A stretch of DNA of 64,000 nt from Stellaceae bacterium (GTDB taxonomy: Bacteria; Pseudomonadota; Alphaproteobacteria; ATCC43930; CGMCC-115725), in assembly GCA_035623985.1 (NCBI GenBank), contig DASPSJ010000109.1:979-64978 (forward strand), in the 5' to 3' direction. The notes under the pieces were generated by a model. That model saw nothing but the letters and a program-made list of their open reading frames with translations, was not told the DNA's origin and did not search any database. Shown one piece after another: positions 1,222 through 56,599 of the stretch (position 1 is the stretch's first letter; each line of letters begins with the position of its first letter). Position numbers and translations under genes: made by a program.

Positions 1222-2628
1222 ATGGCAGGACCGCGCACGCTGTTCGACAAGATCTGGGAGAGCCATGTGGTGGACCGTCAGGCGGACGGCACCTGCCTCA
1301 TCTACATCGACCGCCATCTCGTGCACGAGGTGACGAGCCCGCAGGCCTTCGAGGGCCTGCGCGCCAACGGCCGCAAGGTGCGCCGCCCCGAGCTCACCGT
1401 CGCGGTGGCCGATCACAACGTGCCGACCACCGACCGCAGCCATGGCATCGCCGAGCCCGAGAGCCGGCTCCAGGTCGAGACGCTCGAGCGCAACGTCAAG
1501 GAGTTCGGCATTCCCTATTTCGCCATCGACGACATTCGCCAGGGCATCGTCCACATCATCGGCCCCGAGCAGGGCATGACCCAGCCCGGCATGACCATCG
1601 TCTGCGGCGACAGCCACACCGCGACCCACGGCGCCTTTGGCGCGCTCGCCTTCGGCATCGGCACCTCGGAGGTGGAGCACGTGTTGGCGACGCAGACGCT
1701 GATCCAGCAGCCGGCCAAGAACATGCGCATCACGGTGGAGGGCGACCTTCCCTTTGGCGTCGTCGCCAAGGATCTGGTCCTTGCCGTCATCGGCCGGATC
1801 GGCACCGCCGGCGGCACCGGCCACGTCATCGAATACGCCGGCAGCGCCGTCCGCAAGCTCTCCATGGAGGGGCGGATGACGGTGTGCAACATGACGATTG
1901 AGGCCGGCGCGCGCGCCGGCCTCATCGCGCCGGACGAGACCACCTTCGCCTATCTCAGGGGCCGGCCGCACGCGCCCAAGGGCGCCGCCTGGGAGCAGGC
2001 GATGGCGTTCTGGCGGACGCTGCCCTCCGATCCCGGCGCGCGCTACGACACCGAAGTATCGCTCGCCGCCGCCGAGATCGCGCCGCAAGTCACCTGGGGC
2101 ACCAGCCCGCAGGACGTGCTGCCGATCACCGGCAGCGTTCCCGACCCGGCCGGAGAGGCCGACCAGAACCGGCGCGCGGCGATGGCGCGCTCGCTGGAAT
2201 ATATGGGGCTCACGCCGGGAACCCGGCTGGTCGACCTCAAGGTGCAGCGCGTCTTCATCGGCTCCTGCACCAACGGCCGCATCGAGGATCTGCGCGCCGC
2301 CGCCGCCGTGGCCAAGGGCCGCAAGGTGGCGGCGGGCGTCAACGCCCTGGTGGTGCCGGGCTCGGGCCTGGTGAAGCACCAGGCGGAGGAGGAGGGGCTC
2401 GACCGCGTGTTCCTCGCCGCGGGCTTCGAATGGCGCGAGCCCGGCTGCTCGATGTGCCTTGCCATGAACCCGGACAAGCTCGAGCCGGGCGAGCGCTGCG
2501 CCTCGACCTCGAACCGCAATTTCGAAGGCCGGCAGGGCCGCGGCGGGCGCACGCATCTCGTGAGCCCCGCCATGGCCGCGGCCGCCGCGGTCACGGGCCG
2601 GCTCGCCGACGTCCGCGATCTCGGCTGA
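1222..2628 (+). CDS. leuC: 3-isopropylmalate dehydratase large subunit
   Basis: Motifs '[13 protein letters not shown]', '[17 protein letters not shown]', 'CGDSHT', '[12 protein letters not shown]' and '[10 protein letters not shown]'. The start is placed at ATG 1222 behind GGAG; ATG 1204 is an alternative. Confidence 0.93.
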
Positions 2629-2639
2629 GGGAGGCCTCG

Positions 2640-3251
2640 ATGGACAAGTTCACCACGCTCGACGGGATCGCCGCGCCGCTGCCGATGATCAACGTCGACA
2701 CCGACAAGATCATTCCCAAGCAGCATTTGAAGACGATCAAGCGCAGCGGGCTCGGCAAGGTGCTGTTCGACGAGCTGCGCTATCGCGAGGACGGCTCGGA
2801 GAATCCGGACTTCATCCTCAACCAGCCCGCCTACCGCCAGGCCAAGCTGCTGGTCGCCGGCGAGAATTTCGGCTGCGGCAGTTCGCGCGAGCACGCGCCC
2901 TGGGCGCTGATGGATTTCGGCATCCGCTGCGTCATCGCCGCGAGCTTCGCCGACATCTTCTACAACAACTGCTTCAAGAACGGCATCCTGCCGATCAGGC
3001 TGCCGCAGGCGGTCGTCGATCGGCTCATGGACGACGCGCGCAAGGGCGCCAACGCGCGGCTCAGCGTCGATCTCGACAAGCAGACCATCACCCGGCCCGA
3101 CGGCGGCGTCATCGCCTTCGACATCGATCCCTTCCGCAAGCACTGCCTGCTGAACGGTCTCGACGACGTCGGCCTCACCCTCGAGAAGGCGCCGTCGATC
3201 GCCGCTTTCGAGGAGAAGAACAAACTGAACCGGCCCTGGCTCGGATCCTGA
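2640..3251 (+). CDS. leuD: 3-isopropylmalate dehydratase small subunit
   Basis: Start at ATG 2640 (MDKFTTLDG...). '[17 protein letters not shown]' is the LeuD motif. The gene lies directly after leuC. Confidence 0.93.
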
Positions 3252-3276
3252 GCGGCGCGCGGAAAGGGAGAAGAAC

Positions 3277-4386
<1,110 letters not shown>

Positions 4387-4429
4387 GGGCGGGGAGGGAA
4401 CTCGGACGGCGTCCTATGCCAGCGGGCGT

Positions 4430-5260
4430 CTATTGCGCCGCGAGCGCCGCCGCCTCGCCGTGCCGCGGCGGCGCGAGTTCCGGCCCGAAGACGCGTTCGC
4501 GATTGAGCCAGCGGTCGACCAGCGCGGGATCGCGGAGGATGGCGGCCACCGCCTGGGTGAGTTCGACGAGATCGTCTTGCAGCCCCATGTCGCGCAGGAT
4601 GCCGCGCAGGCCGGCCTGATCGCCGAGGATGAAGTATTGCGCGAAGAGAAAGATCTCGACCGGCGCGTCGAGCCCGTCGAGCCCGGCGAGATAGGCCCGG
4701 TGGCAGGCATCGCCGTCGCTCGCCATCATCGCCCGGCACATCAGCGGCCGGTCGTCATAGACCGAGCAGCGCTTGTCCTCGCCGAGCAACGCGCAAGCCG
4801 CGCCGGTGCGCCGTCGCTCGCGCTCGGCAAGGCCGCGGAAGCGGTCGGCGTTCTCCAGCACGCGGCGGCGGCGGGGATCGGCGGGATCGGCGAGATGGGC
4901 GGCGACCAAAATCGCTTCGGGGATGGTCGCCTCGACGCTCTGATGGCAGCACCAGGCGCAGCCGCTCTTGCAGCCGAGCCTGGGCGCGCTGCCGGCGACC
5001 TCGTCGAGCGTCTGCTGCGCGCGGCCGAACACCAGCAGCTTCAGCAGCGCCAGCACCGTGCGCAGCGTGCTCGAGGGGTCGGCGGCGATCTCGCGCGCCG
5101 CCATGACGATGCCGGCGCCGCGGGTGACCCCGGCAAGCCGCTTCACCAGCGCCTCGAGCTCGGCATCGACCGGCTGCGGCATGCCGAAGGGCAGGCGCAG
5201 GCCGATATCGTCTATGGCGCGAAACGGGGTCTGGTCGGCGTCTTGCATCGCGGGTTCCAT
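4430..5260 (-). CDS. YkgJ/UPF0153-type cysteine-cluster (putative Zn/Fe-chelating) protein
   Basis: Cys clusters 'CKSGCAWCCHQ' and 'CALLGEDKRCSVYDDRPLMCR' are typical of the YkgJ family. The start could be M1 or M5. Confidence 0.6.
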   Translation of the reverse strand: MEPAMQDADQTPFRAIDDIGLRLPFGMPQPVDAELEALVKRLAGVTRGAGIVMAAREIAADPSSTLRTVLALLKLLVFGRAQQTLDEVAGSAPRLGCKSGCAWCCHQSVEATIPEAILVAAHLADPADPRRRRVLENADRFRGLAERERRRTGAACALLGEDKRCSVYDDRPLMCRAMMASDGDACHRAYLAGLDGLDAPVEIFLFAQYFILGDQAGLRGILRDMGLQDDLVELTQAVAAILRDPALVDRWLNRERVFGPELAPPRHGEAAALAAQ

Positions 5261-5369
5261 GGTCTCGAAGGCCGGGTTGGCGACGAAGCCTAACCCGTCC
5301 CTCCTAAGGAATTATTAACCACAAGGCGTGGGATGCCAAGGCTTGCACCGCGATGCGGGGAATGCTTCG

Positions 5370-6389
5370 ATGGCGGCCATGGAACGGGGCTATGCCGCGC
5401 TGGCGCGGCTCTACAACGCCTGGATCATCGGGCTCATCCTGACGGTGGTGACCGCGGTCGGCACGGCGGAAGCCGCGGAGCTGGTGTTCCGCCTGTTCCG
5501 CCGCCAGCATCGCGAGAAATTCCTCCCGGGCCTCGCCAAGCTCGGCCTTGCCGGCCTGCCCGACGCGGTGGCCGCCGCGCGCTATCACTATCTCTCCAAC
5601 CGCATCGGCGGCGTGCGCGTCGAATATATCGAGGAAAGCCCGCGCAAGGCCTGGGTTCGCTATCCGCCGCCGCGCTGGATGTGGCAGGGGACGGCGCTCT
5701 GCGCCGTGCCGAGCGAGGTGTCGCGGGCGATGCTGCGCGGCTGGCACGCCCATAACGGCGTGACGCTCGGCAATCCCGGCCTCGGCTTCGTCTGCACCAA
5801 GCAGACGGTGGACGAGCAGGATGCGCTCGAAGGCTATTTCCAGGATTACGGCCGTCCGCTCGCGCCGGAGGAGCGGCTGCGCTTTTCCCCGGGGGAAGAG
5901 GCGCCGCTCTTCGATCCCGCCGCCGCGCCGCGCCTGCCGGAAGGCGAATGGTCGCCCGAGCGCCTCGCCAAGGCGCAGCGCAACTACGCGCTCGAGTATG
6001 TGCGCAGCGCGCTGCCGGAGCTCTATGGCCTTTTCGGCGCGGAGCAGGCCGGCGCGCTCGCCGGCCGCGCGGCCTATCTCGTGGGCATGCAGTTCTGCGA
6101 GGAGATCAAGGCCGAGCTTGGCGTGAGCCAAGGCGGCGCCGAGGGATTCGCCGAGCTGTTCCGCCTTCTGGCCGCGGCGCAAGGCGAGGCGGCGGAAGTC
6201 GCGCGCGACGGCGAGACGATCCTGATCCGCCAGCGCTCCTGGCGCCTGCTGCCGCGCGGCGAGGCGGACGGGTTTCAGCCGTGGAACCGGCTCTGGGAAG
6301 GCGGCCTCGCCGCCCATGACCGCCGCCTGCGCTGGAGCGTGGCGGCGCGCGAGGAGGGCGAGATCGTCTGGCGGCTGGCGCGGCGGTGA
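5370..6389 (+). CDS. hypothetical protein with N-terminal TM helix
   Basis: Long ORF with coding-like composition (not Arg/Ala shadow-like) and an N-terminal hydrophobic segment 'WIIGLILTVVTAVG'. No family was recognised. The start is uncertain (5328 or 5370). Confidence 0.5.
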   Translation: MAAMERGYAALARLYNAWIIGLILTVVTAVGTAEAAELVFRLFRRQHREKFLPGLAKLGLAGLPDAVAAARYHYLSNRIGGVRVEYIEESPRKAWVRYPPPRWMWQGTALCAVPSEVSRAMLRGWHAHNGVTLGNPGLGFVCTKQTVDEQDALEGYFQDYGRPLAPEERLRFSPGEEAPLFDPAAAPRLPEGEWSPERLAKAQRNYALEYVRSALPELYGLFGAEQAGALAGRAAYLVGMQFCEEIKAELGVSQGGAEGFAELFRLLAAAQGEAAEVARDGETILIRQRSWRLLPRGEADGFQPWNRLWEGGLAAHDRRLRWSVAAREEGEIVWRLARR

Positions 6390-41850: not shown

Positions 41851-42359
41851 CCCGGCAGTCCCGCGCCCGGATCCGGATCCGCGACCGCGACCGCGGCAAA
41901 AGGGGTTTTCACATGGCGCCCTGGACACGCCTTCGACGGTTGCCGCAACGAGACGGCGCCGATGCGCCCGGGCGCGAGGCTGCGCCATGCCGGCCGCCGC
42001 TCGTCCCATCGGGTGCTTGAATAATCGTCGGAAGAGGAAGCACGAAAACCAATAATGAGTCGCTGAATCAGCATCAGCTCGCCGTAATTTCGTCACACTT
42101 CAGTGTAAGTGGTCAATCACTCCCAAGCAGGAACAGAGGCGCCGTGGGAAATTAACCATAAGTGTCATTTTTTGGACCAACCGTCTTTCGAATTGCGTCC
42201 ACGGAATCGCGATCTATATTGGATCAATCATCCCGGATTGCTGGCGTCGGCGATCTCGTGCGATCGACCGACCGCGGTCCCCGGCCGCCTCTTTGCGGCG
42301 GCGACCCGCCGGCCTCTCTTTGCACCACAAGATCCGAAACGGCCCGAGGAGGAACGAGA

Positions 42360-42899
42360 ATGGTCGCCACGCTGGGTGTCGAAATCGTCGAGCATCTGGA
42401 CCATCTGCGCGCCTGCGCCCGCAGCCTGGCGCGCGATCGCGCTCTCGCCGACGACCTCGTGCAGGAGGCCGTCCTCCGCGCGCTCGTCCATGCGGATCAT
42501 TTCCGCCCGGGCAGCAATTTGAGGGCCTGGCTCTCGACGATCCTGCGCAACGCATTCTTCGACGAGAAACGAGCCGAAAAGCGGCGGATGCAGTTCGTCG
42601 ATGCCCTCGCGAGCGCGCCGGCATCGACCAAGGGCGAGCAGGAGGCGCGCCTCGCGATGCAGGACGTCTGCCGCGCCTTCGCGCGCCTGCCGGCGGGCCA
42701 GCGCACGGCCCTGGCGCTGGTGGGCGCCGAGGGCTTCTCCTACGAAGAGGCCGCGCGCCAGGCGGGTTGCACCATTGGCACGGTGAAAAGCCGAGCATCG
42801 CGGGCGCGGGTCAACCTTCATCGGCTGCTCGATGCCGACGAGGGCCGCGCCGCCAACGATGCGGCGTCCGGCGGCCTCTGGCGCCCTCGGGCGGCCTGA
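42360..42899 (+). CDS. ECF-type RNA polymerase sigma-70 factor
   Basis: Start at ATG 42360 behind GAGGAGGAA. Region 2 is 'DDLVQEAVLRALVHADHFRPGSNLRAWLSTILRNAFFDE' and region 4 is 'GFSYEEAARQAGCTIGTVKSRASRAR'. Confidence 0.88.
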   Translation: MVATLGVEIVEHLDHLRACARSLARDRALADDLVQEAVLRALVHADHFRPGSNLRAWLSTILRNAFFDEKRAEKRRMQFVDALASAPASTKGEQEARLAMQDVCRAFARLPAGQRTALALVGAEGFSYEEAARQAGCTIGTVKSRASRARVNLHRLLDADEGRAANDAASGGLWRPRAA

Positions 42900-43073
42900 G
42901 GCCGGTGCCGGCGTCCAAGGCCGGCGAGGAAGGTGCAACAGCCGCCCGCTGATTTTCCGCTACGCGGCACTCCGGCCCCGCGCCATACTCCGGCAAGGCG
43001 TCCTCGGAGACGGTCAGATCAGAAAGGGCGCGCGGCGGCTTGCGCCGCCGCCACCGGGGTCGGGAGGAAGGGC

Positions 43074-44456
43074 ATGGCCGGCGGCATCACCATGGGCGCT
43101 CGGCTCGACCGGCTGCCGGTCGCGCCGTTCCATTACCGCGTCTTCTGCCTCATCGCCGCCGGCATGTTCTTCGACGGCTATGACCTCTACGTCGCGGCGC
43201 CGGTGCTCGGCGCGGCGATGCAGAGCGGCTTCTCCACCGTGGCGCAGAACGGCTGGTTCATCTCGCTCACCTTCCTCGGCATGACGCTGGGCTCGCTGCT
43301 GGCGGGCTTCCTCGGCGACCGCTACGGCCGACGCTTCGCCTATCAGTTCAACCTGATGATCTTCGGCCTGGCCTCGCTCGCCGCCGCGTTCGCGCCCGAT
43401 ATCGAGACGCTGAACGCGCTGCGCTTCGTCATGGGCGTGGGGCTCGGCGCCGAGATCGTCGTCGGCTACGGCACCATGACCGAGTTCGTGCCGCCGCGGG
43501 TGCGCGGCACATGGATGGCGCTGATGGCCCTCGTCGTCGTCGCGGGCCTGCCGGTCACCGCCTTCCTCGCCTGGCTGATCGTGCCCGGCCATGGCTGGCG
43601 GCCGATGTTCGTCATAGCCGGCCTGGGCGCGCTCGTGGTCTGGTATCTGCGCAAGAATTTGCCCGAGTCGCCGCGCTGGCTCGAGGCCAAGGGCCGAAAC
43701 GACGAGGCCGAGGCGCTGATGCAGCGCATCGAGCGCGAGGCGGCGGGGAGCGGCGCGTTGCCGCCGCCGGTGCCGGCGCCGCCGCTGCCGAGCCTCGGGC
43801 TTGCCGCGCTGCTGAGCCCGAGCCTGCTGCCGCGCATGGTGGTCGGCAGCGTCGTGCTGATCACCACCAATGCGCTGATCTTCGGCTTCGTCACCTGGCT
43901 GCCGATCTTCTTCGGGCAGCAAGGGCTCACCATCGCGAAATCGCTGGGCTATACGCTGGTGATCGACCTCGGCTCGCTCGCCGGCTGCGCGCTGGGCGCG
44001 CTCAGCGCCGACCGCGCCGGACGGCGCCCGACGATCATCGCCGCCTCCTTATGGACCATTCTTTTCGGCGCGCTCTACCCCCTCGTCGCGGCGTCGCGGG
44101 CGGTGCTCGCCGTGGGCTTCCTGCTGTTCATCGGCATCTATGTCCTGACCTCGATCCTCTACGGCGTCTATACCGCGGAGCTGTTCCCGACCGAGGTCCG
44201 GCTGCGCGCCAACGGGATCTGCAACATGTTCGGCCGCGGCGCCACCATCTTGACGCCGCTGATCGTCGTGGCGCTCTTCAAAGCCTACGGCGTCGCCGGC
44301 GTGCTCGCCTTCATGATCGCGCTGCTGGTTGTGCAGATCGCCGTCGTCGCGCTCTGGGGCATCGAGCCCGCCCGCCGCGGCCTCGAGGATCTCGACCGCA
44401 CGCGGGAGACCGGCCTGACGCGGGCTCCGGCGGCAAGGCCGAGCGCGCCCGCCTGA
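43074..44456 (+). CDS. MFS transporter
   Basis: Start at ATG 43074 behind GGGAGGAAGG. 'FFDGYDLY', 'GDRYGRR' (MFS motif A), 'PESPRWL' and about 12 TM segments. Confidence 0.85.
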   Translation: MAGGITMGARLDRLPVAPFHYRVFCLIAAGMFFDGYDLYVAAPVLGAAMQSGFSTVAQNGWFISLTFLGMTLGSLLAGFLGDRYGRRFAYQFNLMIFGLASLAAAFAPDIETLNALRFVMGVGLGAEIVVGYGTMTEFVPPRVRGTWMALMALVVVAGLPVTAFLAWLIVPGHGWRPMFVIAGLGALVVWYLRKNLPESPRWLEAKGRNDEAEALMQRIEREAAGSGALPPPVPAPPLPSLGLAALLSPSLLPRMVVGSVVLITTNALIFGFVTWLPIFFGQQGLTIAKSLGYTLVIDLGSLAGCALGALSADRAGRRPTIIAASLWTILFGALYPLVAASRAVLAVGFLLFIGIYVLTSILYGVYTAELFPTEVRLRANGICNMFGRGATILTPLIVVALFKAYGVAGVLAFMIALLVVQIAVVALWGIEPARRGLEDLDRTRETGLTRAPAARPSAPA

Positions 44457-44647
44457 ATCCGTCTCCTTCCGGAACACAGAAGAACTTGCCGCATAAGCAA
44501 TAGAGACGTGTGTTTGGGAAGAGGGCTGCCCGCGTTTATGGGCACACTATTAATCACTCGTTAAGGATTACCGGCCAGCTTAGAGGGCCAGAGTTTGGCG
44601 ACGCCAAGCGCCGGACGCGCACCGGACAACCGCCTTTTGATCGCGAC

Positions 44648-46072
<1,425 letters not shown>

Positions 46073-46108: not shown

Positions 46109-46387
46109 TCAGGCCAGAGCGTGGTCGGGGACGCCGAGATAGGCGGCGAGGCGGCGGCGGACCCAGCCCGGCAAGGCCCGGGGGATGCCATGCTCGAGAT
46201 AGGCGCGCAGGTAGGTGCTTGGCATGTCGATCGCCAAGGAGACCTGCTCCGCCGATTCCCCCAGCTCCTCCAGGGCGGTTCCCAGCACCGCCCGCGGCGC
46301 CTCCTCAAAGGCTGCCGGGCTGTTGTTCGCAAGATTGGTCGGCGGCATGAGCCTACTCCATTTCATCGTCTTGCGAGTCTGATGCAA
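46109..46387 (-). CDS. small putative HTH (XRE-like) protein
   Basis: About 80-92 aa. 'GESAEQVSLAIDMPSTYLRAYLEHG' looks like a helix-turn-helix. It is divergent from the cqsA-like gene. Start ambiguous (46387, 46366 or 46348). Confidence 0.45.
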   Translation of the reverse strand: MHQTRKTMKWSRLMPPTNLANNSPAAFEEAPRAVLGTALEELGESAEQVSLAIDMPSTYLRAYLEHGIPRALPGWVRRRLAAYLGVPDHALA

Positions 46388-46407
46388 CTAGAGTTAAGAT
46401 TGTGTAA

Positions 46408-46434
46408 ATGGCATGGATCGCCAATCCGTGCCAT
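46408..46434. promoter_or_regulatory. imperfect inverted repeat ATGGCATGGAT-N5-ATCCGTGCCAT (candidate operator)
   Basis: Read directly from the sequence: 11-bp arms with 1 mismatch and a 5-bp spacer, located in the 109-bp divergent intergenic region between the small HTH gene and the cqsA-like gene. Confidence 0.35.
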
Positions 46435-46496
46435 GGGCAATGGCCGTTACCCTTGCGCTCCCTGAAAAAGAGGGGTAGGTCCAAAGGCGCAACGGA

Positions 46497-47735
46497 ATGG
46501 AGTCAACGGTCAACCGGTTTGACGGGAACGGTGTCGAAATGTCGTCGGGGGAACGCACTTTTGCCTTCAGGGATTGGAGATCGTCTCCGCCCTCGACCCT
46601 CCATGCGGTGAATCAGCGCTACCAGGAATGGAAGTCGGGCTATGCCGCGGCCAATCTCATCGTCGTCGGCGGCAAGCCCGGCCCCGGCGCCATTCTGCTG
46701 GCCGGCAATGACTACCTGTCGCTGGCAAGGCACCCGAAAATCGTGCAGGCGATCGCCAGTACCCTGCTCAACACCCATTCCGACGTGCTGATGTCGACGG
46801 TTTACGTCCAGCATCTCGACGAGCAGCAGCACTATGAGGCCGCCATGGCGGCCTATCTCGGGAGCGAGGCGGCGGTGCTGTGCCAATCCGGCTGGTCGGC
46901 CAATGACGGGCTGATCCAGGTCCTGGCCGATGAGGACACGCCGGTCTACATCGATATCGGCGCGCACGCCTCGCTCTGGCAGGGAATTCACAGCGCCGGC
47001 GCGACGGCGCGCCCCTTCCGGCACAATGACCCCGCCAGCCTCGCCGCGCTCGCCAAGCGCTATGGCCCGGGCCTCATCGTGGCCGACGCGGTCTACAGCA
47101 CGACCGGGGACATCTGCCCGCTCGCCGACGTCGTCGACATCGCCGAGCGGCAAGGCTCCCTGGTGCTGCTGGACGAGTCGCATGCGGTCGGCGTGCGCGG
47201 GCCGAAAGGCGCCGGGCTCGCGGCCGAGCTGGGCCTCGTCGATCGCGTCCCGTTCCGCACGGTCAGCCTGTCGAAAGCCTTTGTCGGCCGCGGCGGCATC
47301 GTCGCCGGGCCGAGGCAGTTGCTGGAATATTTCCGGTTCGTGGCGCGCCCGTCGGTCTTCAGCTCGGCGGTGCTGCTGCACGAGATCGCGGCGTTCTCGG
47401 CGGCGCTCGAGATCATCCGCCTGGAAGAGTGGCGCCGGCAGGCGCTGCGGCAGAAATCGGGCTATCTGCGGCAGGGCCTGCTGGCCGCGGGATGGCCGAT
47501 CGCGAACAACGATGCCCCGATCATCGCGCTGATGGGCGGCGCGGAGGAGATCACCGTGCGGCTGCGCGACGCGCTCGAGGCGCGCAACGTCTTCGGCGCG
47601 GTGTTCTGCGCGCCGTCGACGCCGAAGAACCGGTCGCTGGTCCGGCTGACGGCGAATGCGACGGTGCCGGAAAGCGATCTCGACCGGGTGATCGAAGCTT
47701 GCGCGGCGGCGAAACGGGAAGCGGGCCTAGGCTGA
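46497..47735 (+). CDS. cqsA: CqsA/LqsA-like PLP-dependent alpha-oxoamine synthase family enzyme (putative alpha-hydroxyketone autoinducer synthase)
   Basis: 'LAGNDYLSLARHP', 'VLCQSGWSANDGLIQ', 'VYIDIGAHASLWQG', 'RYGPGLIVADAVYSTTGD', 'LLDESHAVGVRGPKGAGL', PLP-Lys 'SLSKAF' and 'VFGAVFCAPSTPKNRSLVRL'. These match my recollection of V. cholerae CqsA better than BioF, Kbl or ALAS, and the ALAS 'GSGGTRNISG' loop is absent. An alternative start is ATG 46539. Confidence 0.65.
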   Translation: MESTVNRFDGNGVEMSSGERTFAFRDWRSSPPSTLHAVNQRYQEWKSGYAAANLIVVGGKPGPGAILLAGNDYLSLARHPKIVQAIASTLLNTHSDVLMSTVYVQHLDEQQHYEAAMAAYLGSEAAVLCQSGWSANDGLIQVLADEDTPVYIDIGAHASLWQGIHSAGATARPFRHNDPASLAALAKRYGPGLIVADAVYSTTGDICPLADVVDIAERQGSLVLLDESHAVGVRGPKGAGLAAELGLVDRVPFRTVSLSKAFVGRGGIVAGPRQLLEYFRFVARPSVFSSAVLLHEIAAFSAALEIIRLEEWRRQALRQKSGYLRQGLLAAGWPIANNDAPIIALMGGAEEITVRLRDALEARNVFGAVFCAPSTPKNRSLVRLTANATVPESDLDRVIEACAAAKREAGLG

Positions 47736-49214
47736 GACCGCGATATCGCCGAGCGAGGCGCCGGGCAGGGGAAACCACAGCACCGTCTCGTCGGTGCGTC
47801 CGAAGGCGATGGACCGCGTCACCGTGCCGCCCATGCGTTCCAGCGCCAAATTGGCCAGCGCCAGATCCGGCCGGTTGGAAAATTCCCGATCGTTCCAGGA
47901 GACGCGGCGCAGGAGCCGAACCGCCGTCCCGCGCAGGCCGGCCGAGGAATCGGTGAGGCGCAGATAGTTCCAGCAGCCGGCCTGGCCGAGATTGACCACC
48001 AGCTCCGCTCCGGTCTCGCTGTAGATCTCGTTCAACGCCGCTTCGAGGACGCGCGCCAGCACGTGCGCCATCAGGACGGGCGAGCCGTGGAAGAGGAAAT
48101 CGTTGCGGCGGTCGATGAGGATGCGGGCGCGGTCGAGCTCGGCCGCAAAGGGCAGCCGCGCGACGGCGTCGTCGAGACAGCGCAGCATCGACGCGGCGCG
48201 CTGCTCGCCGGCCGCGGCATCGCCGCCCTCGGGGATGAGCATGCCGATGATGCCGCCGATCTGCTCGGCGGCTTCCTCGACGCGCGCCGGAACGCGCTCC
48301 AAGGCGGCGAGCTGGCGCGACGTCGGCTCCGACGCGCCCGGCTGGCGCCCGCCCTGCGGATAGGCGTGCACCAGCGTCGGCAGGAAGCGGCTCAGGCTCG
48401 CGGCATTGGTCCGGATGCTGACCAACGGGGATTGCATCTCCTTTGCCAGGAGAAGGCCGAGCTCGAGCCGCGCGCGCTCCTTGGCCTGGCGCAGGCCGGC
48501 GGCCTTGTAGCTGAAGATGGTGCCGGCGGTGAGCGTGAACAGGAAGATGGGCACGAATTCGAAGTAGAGGTTGACCGAAGTGGGGACGCCCGGCGAGACC
48601 ATGGCGTGGATCTGCCAGGCCAGGAGGGAGCCGGTGATGAACAGCAGGAACACGCTGATCCAGTCCAACAGCAGCACCACCAGGAACAGGCCGGCCATCG
48701 TCGACATGAGCCAGATGGTGGAAGTGTCGTTCTGCAGCAGCATGAAGGTGAAGAAGAACGGCCCGCAATAGAGCACCGTGCCCAGCCACAGGACCGGCAG
48801 GTAGCGCCGCCAGCGGCTCGGCCAGCGGTCCTTGGCCGCAATCGCGAAGCAGAGCAGCGTGCCGAAGAGGCGGATCCAGATGTTCTCGTAAGGCTGGGGA
48901 AACAGGAACTTCCAGACGAACCAATAGGCCGGGAACATGACGGCGGCGCACAGGCAGACCGGCACCATGTTGCTTTCGACATGGCGGACGCCGCCGAGGA
49001 TGACGGCGGCGACGTATTGGGTTGCCCGCTGAAGGGCCGAGCCGATGTCGCCGCTGCCGGTGGGCAGCGGGTTGCCGGCATCGAGCACCGTCGTCTGGTC
49101 GGTCGCGAGCGTCATGAGGGAGAAGACGGCTCCCGTCTCTTGAGTGGTGCGTGCATCGGCGTCGTGAACAGCGCTCGAAGCATGGCAAAGCGCATCTCTG
49201 CCCCAATTTGGCAC
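47727..49214 (-). CDS. cqsS: CqsS/LqsS-like multi-TM receptor with degenerate histidine-kinase core (H-box His replaced by Lys)
   Basis: TM domain 'FPAYWFVWKFLFPQPYENIWIR' and 'NDTSTIWLMS' resemble the CqsS sensor domain from memory. The DHp H-box position reads 'LAKEMQSPLVSI'. N-box 'LEAALNE'; G1 is 'DSSAGL' and G2 is 'DLALAN' in place of DxGxG and GxGLGL. There is no receiver domain. It converges on cqsA with a 9-nt overlap. An alternative start is 49115. Confidence 0.6.
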   Translation of the reverse strand: MPNWGRDALCHASSAVHDADARTTQETGAVFSLMTLATDQTTVLDAGNPLPTGSGDIGSALQRATQYVAAVILGGVRHVESNMVPVCLCAAVMFPAYWFVWKFLFPQPYENIWIRLFGTLLCFAIAAKDRWPSRWRRYLPVLWLGTVLYCGPFFFTFMLLQNDTSTIWLMSTMAGLFLVVLLLDWISVFLLFITGSLLAWQIHAMVSPGVPTSVNLYFEFVPIFLFTLTAGTIFSYKAAGLRQAKERARLELGLLLAKEMQSPLVSIRTNAASLSRFLPTLVHAYPQGGRQPGASEPTSRQLAALERVPARVEEAAEQIGGIIGMLIPEGGDAAAGEQRAASMLRCLDDAVARLPFAAELDRARILIDRRNDFLFHGSPVLMAHVLARVLEAALNEIYSETGAELVVNLGQAGCWNYLRLTDSSAGLRGTAVRLLRRVSWNDREFSNRPDLALANLALERMGGTVTRSIAFGRTDETVLWFPLPGASLGDIAVSA

Positions 49215-49355
49215 CGTCTAGTACCAAGGGAGTGTTAACGACGACTTAAAAAGCGGTTAATGCAGACCCCGGAATGAAGCTTTTGTCGCCATGGAGTTTT
49301 TCCCGCAAGCGGCAGGAGGCGGCAGCAGGTCTTCCACTCTTTCTGAGAGTATCGG

Positions 49356-49685
49356 TTAAGCGAGGCTGGCGCGGTCGAGCTCGGCGCCGAGGCGGCCGGT
49401 CGCCCAGCAATAAAGCATGTAGAAATCGCCGCGGAACGACCACAGCGGGTGCGTGAAGGTGGCGGGGCGGTTGCGCTCGACATAGGCATGGGCGAACCAG
49501 GCGAAGCCGTAGCCCGCGACCGGCGCGCCCGCCAACAGCCGCCAGTCGCCGGCGAAGAGGAAGCCCGCCAGCAGCGCCACGCCCAGCGTGGTGCCGACAT
49601 AGTGGAGGAGACGGGTGAGCGGCCGGCGATGCTCGTGCAGGTAATAGGGCCAGAACTCGGCAAAGCTTTGGAAGTCCTCGACCAT
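49356..49685 (-). CDS. DUF962 / Mpo1-like small membrane protein
   Basis: Start at MVEDFQSFAEFWPYYLHEHRRPLTRLLHYVGT. 'FAHAYVERNRPATF' is the DUF962 pattern. It is on the same strand as the cqsS-like gene and directly upstream of it. Confidence 0.7.
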   Translation of the reverse strand: MVEDFQSFAEFWPYYLHEHRRPLTRLLHYVGTTLGVALLAGFLFAGDWRLLAGAPVAGYGFAWFAHAYVERNRPATFTHPLWSFRGDFYMLYCWATGRLGAELDRASLA

Positions 49686-49813
49686 CGACCGCTCCTTTGG
49701 CGCGAGCCCGTCCTTCGCCACTTTGGCCCGTCCCCGCCTCTTGTCAATCGCCCGCCGAATGCGTAAGTCAAGCCGTTGCAGGGGGCTGGTCCTCATTCCC
49801 GGGAGTGGATTTC

Positions 49814-50971: not shown

Positions 50972-51562
50972 CTAATCACCGTGCTTTAGGGGATGGGTCT
51001 GATCTTGATAGCGATCAGTGGGGCGAGTTCCATAGGCCATGTCTGGAGGTAACTCTGTCTTTAATTCAAAGAAGGTGATCTGGCAGGGTCGATCGATCAT
51101 GGGAGTTAGTTTTATGTCCAACGGACCGTTGTTCATCATTTCTAGAATTATGGGGCCGCTCCAGCCTGGCTGAATCCATGGAGCGGTTTGATGCATACTC
51201 AAGCCAACGCGCGCGTAGGTGCTGCGACCTTCGATAAGTGCGATCATATTGGTCGGCACTTTTATGCTTTCATACGTCATCCCAAGAATGAAGGCGCTCG
51301 GATGTAGTATAAAGCTCTCGGGATCTCCGAACTCGTCTTTGATCTTGAGTTCTTTGGTTGTGAAAAAACCGGATCGCCCAAGTGCGCCAAGACCATCTGC
51401 CACGGAGACGATTAGGCCTGGTGCCTTCTCGAGTTTCGTGAAGCTGAAGCCCAGTCTGAGATCAATAGAGGCCTCTCCCCATTGTCGCGGCTCCAATGGA
51501 GGATCAAAATCTATGGTGCCAGCTTCGACCGCCGCTCGCAGATTGACCTGCGAGAGTATCAT
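50972..51562 (-). CDS. dCTP deaminase family protein (dUTPase-fold, Dcd-like)
   Basis: 196 aa. 'ASIDLRLG', 'GRSTYARVGLSMHQTAPWIQPGWSGPIILEMMNNG' aligns with E. coli Dcd 'GRSSLARLGLMVH...DPGWSGCIVLEFYNSG', including the catalytic Glu. The gene is visibly AT-richer than the flanking DNA. Confidence 0.75.
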   Translation of the reverse strand: MILSQVNLRAAVEAGTIDFDPPLEPRQWGEASIDLRLGFSFTKLEKAPGLIVSVADGLGALGRSGFFTTKELKIKDEFGDPESFILHPSAFILGMTYESIKVPTNMIALIEGRSTYARVGLSMHQTAPWIQPGWSGPIILEMMNNGPLDIKLTPMIDRPCQITFFELKTELPPDMAYGTRPTDRYQDQTHPLKHGD

Positions 51563-52558: not shown

Positions 52559-55500
52559 TTACGACCAGTCGCGCTTTTCGACGTCTTGGTCGTGTCGGCG
52601 CGCGTCGTTTTCGTAAAATTGAGCGATGCGTTCCAGCATCGCGGCGGTTTGGGGCCATTCGATACGCAACGTCTGGGAAAAGCGCCGGTATTGCGCGGCG
52701 ATCTCACGCTCCTGATCGCCGCCATCGTTCATGGCCCGCCAGGTCGGGCCGCGCTTGCGGATTAATCCCATCATGACGCCGTCTTCGATTTCGGCACTAT
52801 GAAGCGTGTCAACGATGTCGCGCACCGGTGGTGGCGGCCAAATGCCGTCAGCCTCGGCGACAGCATAAGCGAAGACACTTCCAATTTGCCGGTCACAGAC
52901 CTTTCTGCGTCCTATCACCGCACACGCGCGCCGTGCCTCTGTAATCCATCGCTCAAGGGTATCCCGATTGATCGTAGCTCCTTCTTGGCCAGGGATTTGA
53001 GTCCACGAATTCAGGAGCTGATAACCGCGTGAGAACATTGCCTCCCGATTTTCAGACGAATCCGATTCCGGTTCGGAGATGCCGCTTTCGGGATCAGGCC
53101 GATAGACGATCCGGATTACCTCAGCAAAAAATGCCGGATCGTTCGCAAGTTCTCGATGAAGCGCGCTAAGTGACCTCTGCGAACGGCGGAGTATCGGACA
53201 ATACGCCCATTCAAGCTGCGCGATCGTGGAATTTTCGACTTCAGACCGCTTATCGAGCGCTTGAAGAACATGCTCAAGGTAATATTGGAAATTGCTGACA
53301 TCAAAATCGACACGCTTGTCCGTCAATGGTTCGCTCGCCGCGTTTTCAAGAATCGTAACGAGTGTGGCGGTCGGAATTTCTTTTCCGTGGCGTGCCGCGA
53401 CGGATACGGTTGCCCGTGGGCGGCCGACGGACATCAATTTGTTGATGGCAAACAGTCCTTCGCCGGGGACGCCGGCGGCGGTGATGGATGGGATCCGTCG
53501 CCAATACTCATTTTCGATATCTGATCCGAACACGCTGATGCGGTCCCAGAGGCGCCGCGATTCCCGAATAAGCAGGGCGACCACGATGACCATATCTTTG
53601 GTCCAGCTCTCAGCGAGCGCTCGGTCGAGCAGCTTATATCCCCAATCTGCATCGTTGGAGCGCAGGCAGCCGAGCACAATCCCTCGTGCGACATCGACCA
53701 ACTGGCTATCGCCCTTCAGACAGTGCACAAGGATGGTCTCGCGCCGCTCTTCGGTGATGGTTGCGCTGGCAATCGCGTTGCCGATGCTGAAGGGGCTTTC
53801 GACATAATGTGCGAAGCGGAAGACAGCATCGTCACCTTGTGTACCCAAGATTTTGTCGACGGCCTGCTGCCGCAAGAGATTTGCTTGAACCTCTTGAGCT
53901 TCCCAACCACCGTTCGGCGGATGTGGCAAGGGAACTTCACCATTGACGAAAAGCCAAGCAATCTGCTCGTCACGATCGTTGGGCGTTAGTTGCTCGTAGA
54001 TCGGGTCGAGCGGCGTGAGTTCAGCATCGGGCAGGGACCAGTCCGCATCGGGAAATTCCCGATGCTTATGAAGGAGCGAGCGGACAGCAACCCATACCGC
54101 CGATCGCGTTCTTTGGTCGAATTGGCCGACGCGCTCGCCGAGGAGAGTGATCGCGTTTCTCCGGTAGACTGGCGGAAGGTCGGCCAGGTGATCCACCAAC
54201 AACACCCAGCGGTTCCGGTCGGTGCCGACATCCTCAAGAAGACGTTTTGCAACTTCTTCGGCACTCTGGATCCAGAGTGGCGTCGTTATCTCTTCCTCGG
54301 CGCGGCCTTCGGAAAAATCGCGCCAGCGCGGCCGAGCTGATGGCCACATGGTGTCGTACGAAGTCGGCAGCAAGTCGCACATGAGGCGCCACGCAACCCC
54401 AGGTTCGTGCTTGCGAAGAATGGCATCCAGCACACCAAGCCGTTCGGTTAGAGATGCGTAGGTTTGGGGCATCCACAGTACGAACAAGTTGCGAAGGCTG
54501 TTAGCCGGACGATTACCGGAGCGTCCGCCGCCCGTATCCAGCGCGGCTAGCCGGGCGAGCAGGTGAGCCGCGCGGGAGATATATTTCGGGCTCCGAGCGA
54601 GGGTCTCCAGCGCCCAAAGCAAATGGCTATGATTGGCGCCGCTTGCGAGGGGCGTTTCGTCTTCAACAAACAACACCATGACCGGAGGATCGTTGAGGTC
54701 GAGGCTCGCCGCGACCGCGGATAAGAAGGTCTCCGGCGCGGCTTCGGCCAAAAGATCGAGAAGACGGGAAACCGACCACCACCGTCGTGCATCGGCATCG
54801 GTGAGAAGTTTTGAGACGATCGCCGCGGCTCTTTGCGCGGCGTCAGCGATACCGGCCTGATTGCCGAAGATCGCGAGTGCCATGAGCGTTTCGCTTAACC
54901 CGGCGCGGAGGAACTCCGAATGTTCCGGCATTTGCCCATGAATGGGCGCGTACCAGCGCTGGTCCTTGGGCATATCGAAACGAGGGTCGGGCCTGCCCAA
55001 CACATCAACCGCGACGTTGGCGTAAGCCTCAAGGGCCTGAGGCGTGAGGTAGGGTGCGAGCCGAAAGAGAGCGTCTCGTGGTGAGGCAATCTTCCACACA
55101 GAGCCGGATTTCCGTAGCGGGCTATCGGGGACTGTGAGCCAGGGGGTCAGTGACCGAACGATTGAATCGTAGTCGGCGTGAACGAGTTGCTCCATGACGG
55201 CACGGTCTGCGGGCTTTGCCTCATCCCAGGCCCCGGCAAGAAGCGCCGGGATCATGGTTGGGGCATGTAGCGGCGAAGCCCATTCGGGCACCATCCGCGC
55301 GTTTACGGACGGATGCAGCCTCCGAAATATTGCCAAACTGCCAGCCATGTCGCGTGCGACTTCGGATGCTTCTTGGTCGGGAAGCCCCATCGATTTGAGA
55401 GCAGCGTCTATCTCGATCCGGAGGGCACGGGAGAGGCGTATGACAGTTTCCGGTGTACCGACTTCGGACCCGAAGACGCTGTAGACGTGATGTCCTTGCC

Positions 55501-56599
55501 CCACAAGCCAGCGCGCTAATCCGGGATCGGCATTCTCAAGAACGATGATGAGCGACGTTGCGCTGTGCCCTAAAGCGCGTGCCTGGCCCGGCTCTGTGGC
55601 TATAAGGCACCGTGCCAGGTAGGAAAGGCGATAATCGGCAGGAAGGCGATCGATGGCGGCATAGAGGAACGCCATTGCCTCTTCCGGAGATTCCGCCTGG
55701 ATCGTGATTGGGGCGGGCTCGCCATAGAGCCAGTTCAGAGCCTGCGTGGTCTCTTCGTCGCGGCCAGCAAGAACGAGATCGGTGCTTATGGGCCATTCGG
55801 TCGATAACGACCACTCCTCCCAAACTTTCTCGATCTGGCGCAGGCCCAGCGGGAGCTTGCCGGTCAGCACGGCGAGCCAATGGCCGACGGCCGGGTTCAG
55901 CTCGATCCAATGAACAAGGTCAACGGCATCGAGCGCGCGGATATCGCCCCATTTTCCTTCTGCTTTTTTCTCGTTGAGCCACGCAGCCTTGCCGGAGAAC
56001 CGCAAGGGTGTCACGAAGACGAACGTCGAGTTCACCGGAACGATATCTTCCGGCTTTTGGCTGCGGTCGTTGAAAACCTTATCCGCCTTTTTGCGGATGT
56101 TGGCGGCTTGCGCCGTGAGCTCCCAACCGGATTCGCCTGCCGGAATATATTTCGAGCCGGCCGCGACGGTGCAACGGCCATCCCAACCGTGGAGGGAGAT
56201 GGCATCACCGCTCGGAAAGCGAAGCAAGGCCTCGTGCCCTTTTTCGGCGCGAATGAGGCGCGTCAGCAGTTCCGGCAGACGCGCTTGGCAATCGCGCGTT
56301 GCGGCCCATTGGCGTAGCTCGGTCTCATCGATGAAACGGAATGGGGTGTTGCCCTTTGGAAGGAAAGGCGGGTGTCCTGGCGGTGTTCCACGCACCGTGC
56401 CATCGTCGGAAAACGTAATGCGTTCTTTTTCGAAGCTTTTCACAATGGCATGAAGATTGTTCTGAATGGGTTCACGAAACCCGCGCTCAAAATCGGCGAC
56501 GGTGGATAGTGCCACGCCTGCTCGTTGCGCCAACGCGCGTTGAGACCAGCCAAGAAGCGCACGAGCGGCTTTGACCTGTGTGGCGGTGGGTATCGGCAT
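52559..56599 (-). CDS. 1346-aa protein of unknown function with N-terminal XRE-type HTH
   Basis: Uninterrupted ORF in a moderate-GC region. HTH 'QVKAARALLGWSQRALAQRAGVALSTVADFERG'. The following domain 'FPSGDAISLHGWDGRCTV...GESGWELTAQAANIRKKAD' is possibly nuclease-fold-like. The remainder is long and helical-repeat-like. No Walker A was seen by eye. Confidence 0.8.
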   Translation of the reverse strand: MPIPTATQVKAARALLGWSQRALAQRAGVALSTVADFERGFREPIQNNLHAIVKSFEKERITFSDDGTVRGTPPGHPPFLPKGNTPFRFIDETELRQWAATRDCQARLPELLTRLIRAEKGHEALLRFPSGDAISLHGWDGRCTVAAGSKYIPAGESGWELTAQAANIRKKADKVFNDRSQKPEDIVPVNSTFVFVTPLRFSGKAAWLNEKKAEGKWGDIRALDAVDLVHWIELNPAVGHWLAVLTGKLPLGLRQIEKVWEEWSLSTEWPISTDLVLAGRDEETTQALNWLYGEPAPITIQAESPEEAMAFLYAAIDRLPADYRLSYLARCLIATEPGQARALGHSATSLIIVLENADPGLARWLVGQGHHVYSVFGSEVGTPETVIRLSRALRIEIDAALKSMGLPDQEASEVARDMAGSLAIFRRLHPSVNARMVPEWASPLHAPTMIPALLAGAWDEAKPADRAVMEQLVHADYDSIVRSLTPWLTVPDSPLRKSGSVWKIASPRDALFRLAPYLTPQALEAYANVAVDVLGRPDPRFDMPKDQRWYAPIHGQMPEHSEFLRAGLSETLMALAIFGNQAGIADAAQRAAAIVSKLLTDADARRWWSVSRLLDLLAEAAPETFLSAVAASLDLNDPPVMVLFVEDETPLASGANHSHLLWALETLARSPKYISRAAHLLARLAALDTGGGRSGNRPANSLRNLFVLWMPQTYASLTERLGVLDAILRKHEPGVAWRLMCDLLPTSYDTMWPSARPRWRDFSEGRAEEEITTPLWIQSAEEVAKRLLEDVGTDRNRWVLLVDHLADLPPVYRRNAITLLGERVGQFDQRTRSAVWVAVRSLLHKHREFPDADWSLPDAELTPLDPIYEQLTPNDRDEQIAWLFVNGEVPLPHPPNGGWEAQEVQANLLRQQAVDKILGTQGDDAVFRFAHYVESPFSIGNAIASATITEERRETILVHCLKGDSQLVDVARGIVLGCLRSNDADWGYKLLDRALAESWTKDMVIVVALLIRESRRLWDRISVFGSDIENEYWRRIPSITAAGVPGEGLFAINKLMSVGRPRATVSVAARHGKEIPTATLVTILENAASEPLTDKRVDFDVSNFQYYLEHVLQALDKRSEVENSTIAQLEWAYCPILRRSQRSLSALHRELANDPAFFAEVIRIVYRPDPESGISEPESDSSENREAMFSRGYQLLNSWTQIPGQEGATINRDTLERWITEARRACAVIGRRKVCDRQIGSVFAYAVAEADGIWPPPPVRDIVDTLHSAEIEDGVMMGLIRKRGPTWRAMNDGGDQEREIAAQYRRFSQTLRIEWPQTAAMLERIAQFYENDARRHDQDVEKRDWS

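Follow-up and report, generated by a model that had tools for sequence, protein, structure and literature searches.

A conserved alphaproteobacterial gene module pairing an alpha-hydroxyketone autoinducer synthase with a predicted pseudokinase receptor of the CqsS/LqsS family

The locus described here lies on a 64,000-nucleotide stretch of DNA (the window, meaning the whole stretch analysed) from contig DASPSJ010000109.1 of a Stellaceae bacterium (GenBank assembly GCA_035623985.1) and encodes a synthase of the CqsA/LqsA family together with a convergently transcribed membrane receptor. The predicted receptor protein is a pseudokinase in which the ligand pocket of the CqsS/LqsS family is kept while the phospho-acceptor His and the ATP-binding motifs are gone. 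Four genes are found within 44.5–49.2 kb, namely HK2 (+), which encodes a membrane histidine kinase, an open reading frame (ORF) of 79 amino acids (aa) (−), cqsA (+), and the receptor gene (−). An earlier note, made from the letters of the window, had described the last two as a CqsA/CqsS-type signalling locus; the family of the synthase and that of the receptor both stand, whereas the implied two-component pair does not, there being no phospho-acceptor His, ATP boxes, receiver, or LqsR partner. That note also overlooked two conserved genes of the module, HK2 and the gene for a small protein with a predicted helix-turn-helix (HTH); the left limit that it gave, 46109, is the end of this separate small gene, and HK2 (44684–46072) falls outside its range. 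The window corresponds approximately to the whole of a 64,928-bp metagenomic contig (ENA ERZ27251322), and the gene calls of the identical ENA contig were used. The same module is also present on a JGI contig from another sample.

Receptor homology and fold

The receptor gene occupies 47727–49115 on the minus strand and encodes 462 aa. Its longest ORF extends over 47727–49214 (−), and the ATG at 49115 is most likely the start, rather than 49214 or 49685, because the identical database protein (P0001) and all homologues begin there. The receptor gave no match at threshold against Pfam or NCBIfam and none against PDB sequences, so that its identity is drawn only from homologue searches and profile comparison. 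A homologue search returned 82 relatives, and an exhaustive phmmer search returned 206 representatives at E ≤ 1e-30. The 29 closest homologues (47–100% identity) carry no precomputed Pfam domain save for one HATPase_c match (P0028); relatives at 37% identity or less carry HATPase_c, in some cases HisKA, and some bear a CqsS label. Comparison of the receptor clade with the canonical CqsS/LqsS-like kinases in hhalign gives a probability of 100% and an E value of 1.7e-99 over 433 columns, from transmembrane (TM) helix 1 to the C-terminus, indicating on homology grounds that the neighbour of cqsA is a CqsS/LqsS-family member over its full length.

The AlphaFold2 model of the receptor has a mean pLDDT (predicted local distance difference test) of 83 and begins with six helices, the sixth of which is one 76-residue helix reaching into a cytoplasmic hairpin that is followed by an alpha/beta domain. 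In Foldseek the model matches histidine-kinase structures comprising DHp and CA domains with E values of 1e-6 to 1e-4 and a probability of 1.0, including DivL (4q20) and RetS-GacS (7n0e), consistent with a kinase-like fold.

Retention of the ligand pocket

The six-helix TM domain, predicted to sense the ligand, covers receptor residues ∼40–205 (48501–48998, −) and contains the motifs FPAYWFVWKFLFPQPYEN and PFFFTFMLLQNDTSTIWLMS. The two segments quoted from it in the earlier note, FPAYWFVWKFLFPQPYEN and NDTSTIWLMS, are both exact in the convergent ORF, and the likeness to a CqsS/LqsS-type sensing domain that had been proposed from them is borne out by intact ligand-contact residues. Residues that contact the autoinducer CAI-1 have been listed for V. 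harveyi CqsS from cryo-EM structures (2026 preprint, PMC13174287). They were mapped onto the receptor by a constant offset of +35, supported by nine letter matches and by agreement with MAFFT, the V. harveyi sequence itself lying outside the comparison. Under this mapping the contacts are identical at nine of 11 positions, including the three head-group ligands W, R, and S: Phe26, Tyr29, Trp33, Arg47, and Phe86 of V. harveyi CqsS correspond to F61, Y64, W68, R82, and F121 of the receptor, and Phe87, Ser103, Phe158, and Phe166 correspond to F122, S138, F193, and F201. The three head-group ligands are invariant in 29/29 clade members. The two differences replace V. harveyi Leu83 by Gly118 and Phe162 by Ala197, and these substitutions hint at a ligand with a different acyl tail.

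Loss of kinase chemistry under purifying selection

Under the same +35 offset, His190 of V. harveyi CqsS corresponds to Lys225 of the receptor (codon 48441–48443, −; translation LLAKEMQS), at the phospho-acceptor position that aligns with the AHELRTPL of 40/40 canonical relatives. In the window clade (29 sequences) this H box reads mostly AKEMQSPL, and the position of the His is occupied by K, R, Q, N, or S in every member, and by R in P0030 besides, against His in all 40 canonical relatives. The boxes of the ATP site are degraded as well. In the catalytic-domain remnant, residues ∼301–455 (47751–48215, −), the N box NLLKNAL of the canonical set (40/40) is RVLEAAL in the clade, the G1 box DTGxGI (40/40) is DSSAGL, and the G2 box GxGIGLAF (40/40) is RPDLALAN. 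No alternative conserved His was found in the helical hairpin among the clade alignments. The receptor scores 12.9 bits on HATPase_c, where the cut-off is 26.4, and has no HisKA match; the model nevertheless gives its C-terminal remnant, after which the protein ends, an alpha/beta fold, at pLDDT mostly 72–95. Taken at the level of these motifs, the receptor is a pseudokinase, its pocket kept and its phospho-acceptor His and ATP-binding motifs gone.

Comparison with the closest locus, L009 (dS ∼0.36), gives dN/dS values of 0.23 for the membrane domain, 0.18 for the hairpin, and 0.22 for the degenerate C-terminal domain; comparisons with loci beyond L009 are saturated. The motifs that replace the canonical boxes, for example RPDLALA, are specific to the clade and invariant across it. 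By these estimates the receptor is under purifying selection, which indicates that it is maintained rather than decaying.

The synthase gene

The cqsA/lqsA-family gene (46497–47735, +) encodes a predicted alpha-hydroxyketone autoinducer synthase of 412 aa and converges with the receptor gene, their 3' ends, stop codons included, sharing 9 bp (47727–47735). Against the NCBIfam model NF005526 ('alpha-hydroxyketone-type quorum-sensing autoinducer synthase'; curated cut-off 428) the protein scores 466.6 bits (E 5e-140), which exceeds the threshold, and it falls well below the cut-offs (in parentheses) of the rival models BioF, 243.6 (426), Kbl, 207.5 (460), SPT, 198.6 (500), and ALAS, 181.4 (338). 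Among PDB sequences its closest solved structure is V. cholerae CqsA (2wk8, 3hqt), with 289.6 bits and an E value of 3.5e-85 for 2wk8, the runner-up being an alpha-oxoamine synthase of BioF/Kbl type at 147 bits. Lys260 (SLSKAF; codon 47274–47276, +) aligns with Lys236 (SLAKTF) of V. cholerae CqsA, the lysine that binds pyridoxal 5'-phosphate (PLP). The K236A protein of CqsA has no catalytic activity (PMC13174287). On this homology evidence the locus is taken to encode a genuine CAI-1/LAI-1-type alpha-hydroxyketone autoinducer synthase.

These results agree with what had been proposed for the PLP enzyme from its letters. The motifs NDYLSLARHP, QSGWSAN, YIDIGAHASLWQG, GPGLIVADAVYST, DESHAVG, and VFGAVFCAPSTPKN, on which the assignment to CqsA/LqsA rather than BioF, Kbl, ALAS, or SPT had been based, are all exact in the 412-aa ORF, and the assignment itself is upheld by the model scores and by CqsA being the best PDB relative. 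Clustering with BioF, ALAS, or SPT, which would have spoken for a different enzyme, was examined through the family-model scores and is not what they indicate. The alphaproteobacterial setting is likewise correct, the nearest named relatives being metagenome-assembled genomes (MAGs) of Alphaproteobacteria, Rhodospirillales, and Stellaceae. What was overstated is the rarity of such loci outside Vibrio and Legionella: a receptor relative is present in 469 stretches of species-representative genomes, and CqsA/LqsA-LqsS clusters outside these two genera have been noted in reviews (PMC3376566). For both reasons a CqsA-type synthase in an alphaproteobacterium is by itself unremarkable.

Conservation of the module and comparison across the family

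The loci compared were gathered by context look-ups and one scan of species-representative genomes, and tblastn was run over 88 loci. A canonical His box of the AHELRTPL type is present in 67/88 loci, and in 66 of these 67 an LqsR-type regulator lies directly downstream of the receptor; the exception is L049, where the contig stops at the receptor. A convergent cqsA follows LqsR in 65/66, which is the arrangement of Legionella, Nitrococcus, and Paraburkholderia. By the same tblastn search over the 88 loci, no LqsR-type regulator was found in the His-less loci. The 64-kb window and the module loci were also searched for receiver domains with phmmer and a small home-made hidden Markov model, both of limited sensitivity, and none was found.

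The order HK2, small ORF, cqsA, His-less receptor is shared by the window and loci L003, L004, L009, L010, L012, and L089, and the genes flanking the module differ among the more distant of the loci. Identities to the window for receptor, HK2, and CqsA are 84, 91, and 87% in L009, 66, 76, and 75% in L010, and 53, 58, and 60% in L012. More distant His-less receptors (36–38% identity, the His being replaced by R, N, G, or Q) come mostly from marine MAGs of Rhodospirillaceae type, and in L006, L013, L014, L018, and L038 they have an HK2-type kinase nearby in other gene orders. In a survey of the family among the top 150 representatives the His is kept in 129 and absent in ∼16, which lie mostly among the nearest relatives of the window receptor. 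The clade of the window receptor forms one full-length cluster at 50% identity among 1.84 billion representatives, and its sources are metagenomes and four MAGs only; of the MAG labels, Sulfotelmatobacter and Cybelea probably stem from binning errors. A neighbour-joining tree of receptors, which suggests two groups of His-less receptors, places the window clade on a long branch and misplaces two sequences, and its topology is not relied on.

The second kinase, the small HTH protein, and the intergenic motif

HK2 (44684–46072, +; 462 aa, longest ORF starting at 44510) is a predicted membrane histidine kinase that matches Pfam HisKA at 1.1e-19 and HATPase_c at 1.8e-25, and its H, N, G1, and G2 boxes are all intact (SHELRTPLN, LLNLLSNAVKFT, DTGIGM, and GTGLGL). 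Its N-terminal ∼200 aa comprise ∼5–6 hydrophobic segments joined by very short loops; several Trp, Arg, Pro, and Gln residues in this region are invariant, and no Pfam family matches it. Full-length orthologues at 45–93% identity are encoded in L003, L004, L006, L009, L010, L012, L038, and L089; those in loci with the module order are 58–93% identical over their full length, membrane domain included. Relatives in the kinase core only (44–50%) adjoin cqsA in L013, L014, L018, L031, and L034. A metagenome scan from the side of HK2 yielded five loci, three with the HTH gene and cqsA, one on a contig already known, and one with HK2 alone.

The small gene (46109–46348, −), divergent from cqsA, encodes 79 aa and has 34 homologues of 77–84 aa at 57–97% identity, none with a Pfam domain. 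It sits between HK2 and cqsA at every locus examined except L011, which has no HK2. The AlphaFold2 model (pLDDT 73) has four helices, and nearly all of its top 50 Foldseek matches in the PDB are HTH proteins of XRE/Cro type, with TM-scores of 0.6–0.69 and weak E values of 0.1–0.4; they include SinR (TM-score 0.69, root mean square deviation 1.7 Å), HigA, and lambda repressor. The sole family-model match, Pfam HTH_25, is sub-threshold (E 0.045, 14 bits against a cut-off of 24.6), and the protein is accordingly described as a predicted XRE/Cro-like HTH protein.

The region between the HTH gene and cqsA contains a conserved AT-rich motif, GTTAAGATTGTGTAAA (46393–46408; consensus GTTAAnATTnTGTAAA), in which the bases GTTAA and GT.AA are invariant in seven orthologous intergenic regions, the remainder having diverged (mean column identity 47%). 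It may serve as an operator or as part of a promoter. At 46408–46434 there is also an imperfect palindrome of 11 nt, ATGGCATGGAT/ATCCGTGCCAT, seen in the window alone.

Proposed mechanism and alternatives

The reading put forward here is that of a ligand-gated pseudokinase that would control HK2 by protein contact and not through a phosphorelay of its own, and it is given an even chance of being correct. The hydrophobic ketone made by CqsA would build up with cell density, and its binding in the TM domain of the receptor would shift TM6, as in Vibrio CqsS. Since the receptor cannot autophosphorylate, the change would have to be relayed by protein contact, the most likely target being HK2, whose balance of kinase and phosphatase activities would be switched; HK2 would then phosphorylate a response regulator from another part of the genome, and the cqsA and HTH genes, which diverge, would probably be under the transcriptional control of the small HTH protein acting at the AT-rich motif. 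Two precedents are relevant. The pseudokinase DivL controls the kinase CckA (PMC4211667, PMC5361649), and the 6-TM domain of CqsS is able to drive a foreign output that is not a kinase (PMC4821796).

Several observations weigh against this reading. The connection between the receptor and HK2 is drawn from conserved gene adjacency, which co-regulation alone could explain, and HK2 has a conserved membrane domain of its own, so it could be an independent sensor. No cognate response regulator for HK2 was identified in the window or in the module loci. Loci L031 and L034 retain the His (NLSHELRSPL) and have an HK2-type kinase beside cqsA and no LqsR, from which it follows that the second kinase is not strictly tied to loss of the His; these two loci, one of them a Marinicaulis MAG, may be intermediate between the canonical and the His-less designs. 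Locus L011 (3155–5195) has the receptor, cqsA, and the HTH gene, with an EnvZ/OmpR-like pair instead of HK2. Conversely, L093 has an HK2-type kinase (60% identity) on a 7.6-kb contig without the other module genes. Finally, every member of the clade derives from a metagenome or MAG.

A wider formulation leaves the target of the receptor open between HK2 and CqsA. It holds that a pseudokinase arose from a family of quorum-sensing receptors, that it switches either a partner kinase, in a 'three-component' circuit, or its own synthase, and that this design has replaced LqsR in an uncultured alphaproteobacterial lineage; its chances are judged to fall somewhat short of even.

The alternative that survives best is that the receptor acts on its own synthase, docking CqsA at the membrane or tuning it by ligand occupancy, or both, with HK2 independent. 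The hydrophobic signal would then be subject to feedback or be released in a coupled manner, and the receptor would feed no phosphorelay. The intracellular domain of V. harveyi CqsS binds CqsA tightly and independently of catalysis, one essential interface being on the DHp hairpin, and regulation or membrane localisation of CqsA has been proposed for the complex by the authors of that study (PMC13174287). The window receptor keeps a DHp-like hairpin, its gene overlaps cqsA, and L011 has receptor, cqsA, and HTH gene without HK2, all of which suit such docking. Nevertheless, of the three interfaces in Vibrio two involve RecL and Rec domains, both absent from the receptor; at interface 1, the DHp residues identified in Vibrio have no conserved counterparts in it, and docking leaves the replacement of LqsR by HK2 unexplained. 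On balance this alternative is unlikely, while clearly ahead of those that follow.

A receptor that acts only as a phosphatase, switched by ligand and opposing HK2 on a shared response regulator so that the two functions are split, is improbable. In HisKA kinases a Thr four residues after the His is required for phosphatase activity; it is Thr in all canonical members here, but the residue varies in the clade (S, L, A, T, or V). The catalytic domain is in addition degenerate and no response regulator is linked, although the Glu beside the His position and the Pro-Leu that follows are invariant in 70/70 aligned sequences, as might be expected if phosphatase function persisted, and Vibrio CqsS in its ligand-bound state is described as a phosphatase (PMC13174287).

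In an equally improbable arrangement, the receptor would tether the small HTH protein to the membrane, setting it free or binding it according to ligand, and the HTH protein would be the direct transcriptional output. The HTH gene is found only in the module, between HK2 and cqsA, and its product has no sensory domain and a conserved candidate operator alongside, all in keeping with such tethering. Yet the distant His-less receptors of L006, L013, L014, L018, and L038 are accompanied by HK2-type kinases and by no HTH homologue, and the HTH assignment itself depends on a medium-confidence model and weak E values.

The remaining two explanations are both very hard to credit. An ordinary CqsS/LqsS two-component kinase, autophosphorylating and acting via a response regulator, as the earlier note had read it, would fit a family member by homology that adjoins cqsA and has clade relatives labelled 'CqsS' by JGI, but it is contradicted by the Lys in place of His, the loss of the N, G1, and G2 boxes, the missing HisKA and HATPase_c matches, and the lack of an alternative His, a receiver, and LqsR. 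A decaying relic, losing function after the pathway was rewired, would fit a receptor that evolves faster than HK2 and CqsA (the L009, L010, and L012 identities), but all clade members have intact full-length ORFs and a strictly conserved pocket, and the idea was rejected on the dN/dS of ∼0.2, found even in the degenerate domain, and on the invariant replacement motifs.

Neighbouring genes and further observations

Just upstream of the receptor gene and on the same strand is an Mpo1-like/DUF962 gene (49356–49796, −; 2-hydroxy fatty acid dioxygenase family, Pfam E 2.4e-34). It was considered as a member of the module and rejected, being missing at that position in L003, L004, and L005. The receptor gene of L005 has a gene for a fatty-acid hydroxylase a short distance upstream, on the other strand, and this enzyme, like the Mpo1-like one, acts on lipids. 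Upstream of HK2, genes for an ECF sigma factor and an MFS transporter (42162–44456) are common to the window and its closest relatives (L002, L089, and L090) and are not found in more distant module loci; this linkage is probably synteny by descent and not module membership.

Three observations concern other cqsA loci. In cqsA loci of marine Alphaproteobacteria (L013:9584–10456 and L031:8275–9198), a LolA-like gene of lipoprotein-carrier type (Pfam LolA_like, E ∼1e-58) separates the receptor from the HK2-type kinase, and its product could be a carrier of the hydrophobic signal. A 922-aa receiver-containing protein is encoded just upstream of the receptor in L031. In L038 an 1195-aa gene product (1953–5540, −) fuses an MMPL/RND-type transporter to a second aminotransferase class I/II domain, alpha-oxoamine-synthase-like; its gene directly adjoins cqsA and the HK2-type kinase, so that an autoinducer locus would here include a fusion of transporter and synthase.

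Further along the window, the segment 50000–58000 has a GC content of 0.58–0.61, compared with 0.66–0.74 elsewhere. It contains a dCTP-deaminase-like gene (50972–51562, −), a 1346-aa ORF (52559–56599, −) with a weak N-terminal HTH_3 match and, further along, a Fic-domain gene. The segment looks like an acquired island, possibly related to defence.

Significance

The two genera in which alpha-hydroxyketone signalling has been elucidated, Vibrio and Legionella, both use receptors that are active kinases. In the module described here, which is conserved, the ligand-sensing domain has been retained, with its ligand-contact residues, while the kinase chemistry was discarded. Because the domain is kept without the kinase, natural rewiring of the domain to another output is possible, as engineered chimeras have suggested (PMC4821796). 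Literature searches for a branch of receptors lacking both the His and the ATP site and tied to a second kinase instead of LqsR returned no description, and a search pairing 'CqsS' with 'pseudokinase' returned no paper. The module, confined to uncultured bacteria, would provide a natural system for studying how a membrane pseudokinase transmits a signal, and it ties in with the binding of CqsS to its synthase, reported in 2026 (PMC13174287). A practical consequence is that metagenome counts of 'CqsS' made by homology would score proteins of this clade as kinases, which is almost certainly wrong.

Comparison with known systems

The Lqs system of Legionella pneumophila (LqsA, LqsS/LqsT, and LqsR, with relatives in Nitrococcus, Paraburkholderia, Janthinobacterium, and other genera) uses a synthase of the same family and a receptor of the same plan, in which a 6-TM domain leads into a helical hairpin, the C-terminal domain is of alpha/beta type, and a receiver is lacking (PMC3376566). 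In both systems the receptor and synthase genes are convergent and adjacent, and the TM motifs are conserved. The difference lies in the kinase and its output: loci of Lqs type have the AHELRTPL box, intact ATP boxes, and LqsR directly downstream where the contig allows, whereas the window has HK2 and the small HTH gene instead. Vibrio CqsA/CqsS provides the closest solved synthase structure, the PLP lysine, nine of the 11 CAI-1 contacts, and a TM6 that continues into a cytoplasmic helix. Vibrio CqsS differs in being a hybrid kinase: it has His190 and a functional ATP site and feeds LuxU-LuxO by way of RecL and receiver domains, and none of these features is present in the window receptor.

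Two pairs from outside the autoinducer field bear on the proposed contact between the receptor and HK2. DivL-CckA of Caulobacter is likewise alphaproteobacterial and comprises a His-less histidine-kinase fold, under selection, paired with a bona fide kinase. DivL, a cytoplasmic protein with PAS domains and with Tyr for His, senses the state of a response regulator, whereas the window receptor is a predicted membrane ligand receptor of an unrelated subfamily whose interaction with HK2 is proposed from gene context. RetS of Pseudomonas aeruginosa differs in family and input, keeping kinase-like and receiver domains and having no link to an autoinducer synthase, but RetS-GacS provides a precedent for a pair of membrane kinase-like proteins that signal through hairpin contacts without relying on phosphorylation of the first partner.

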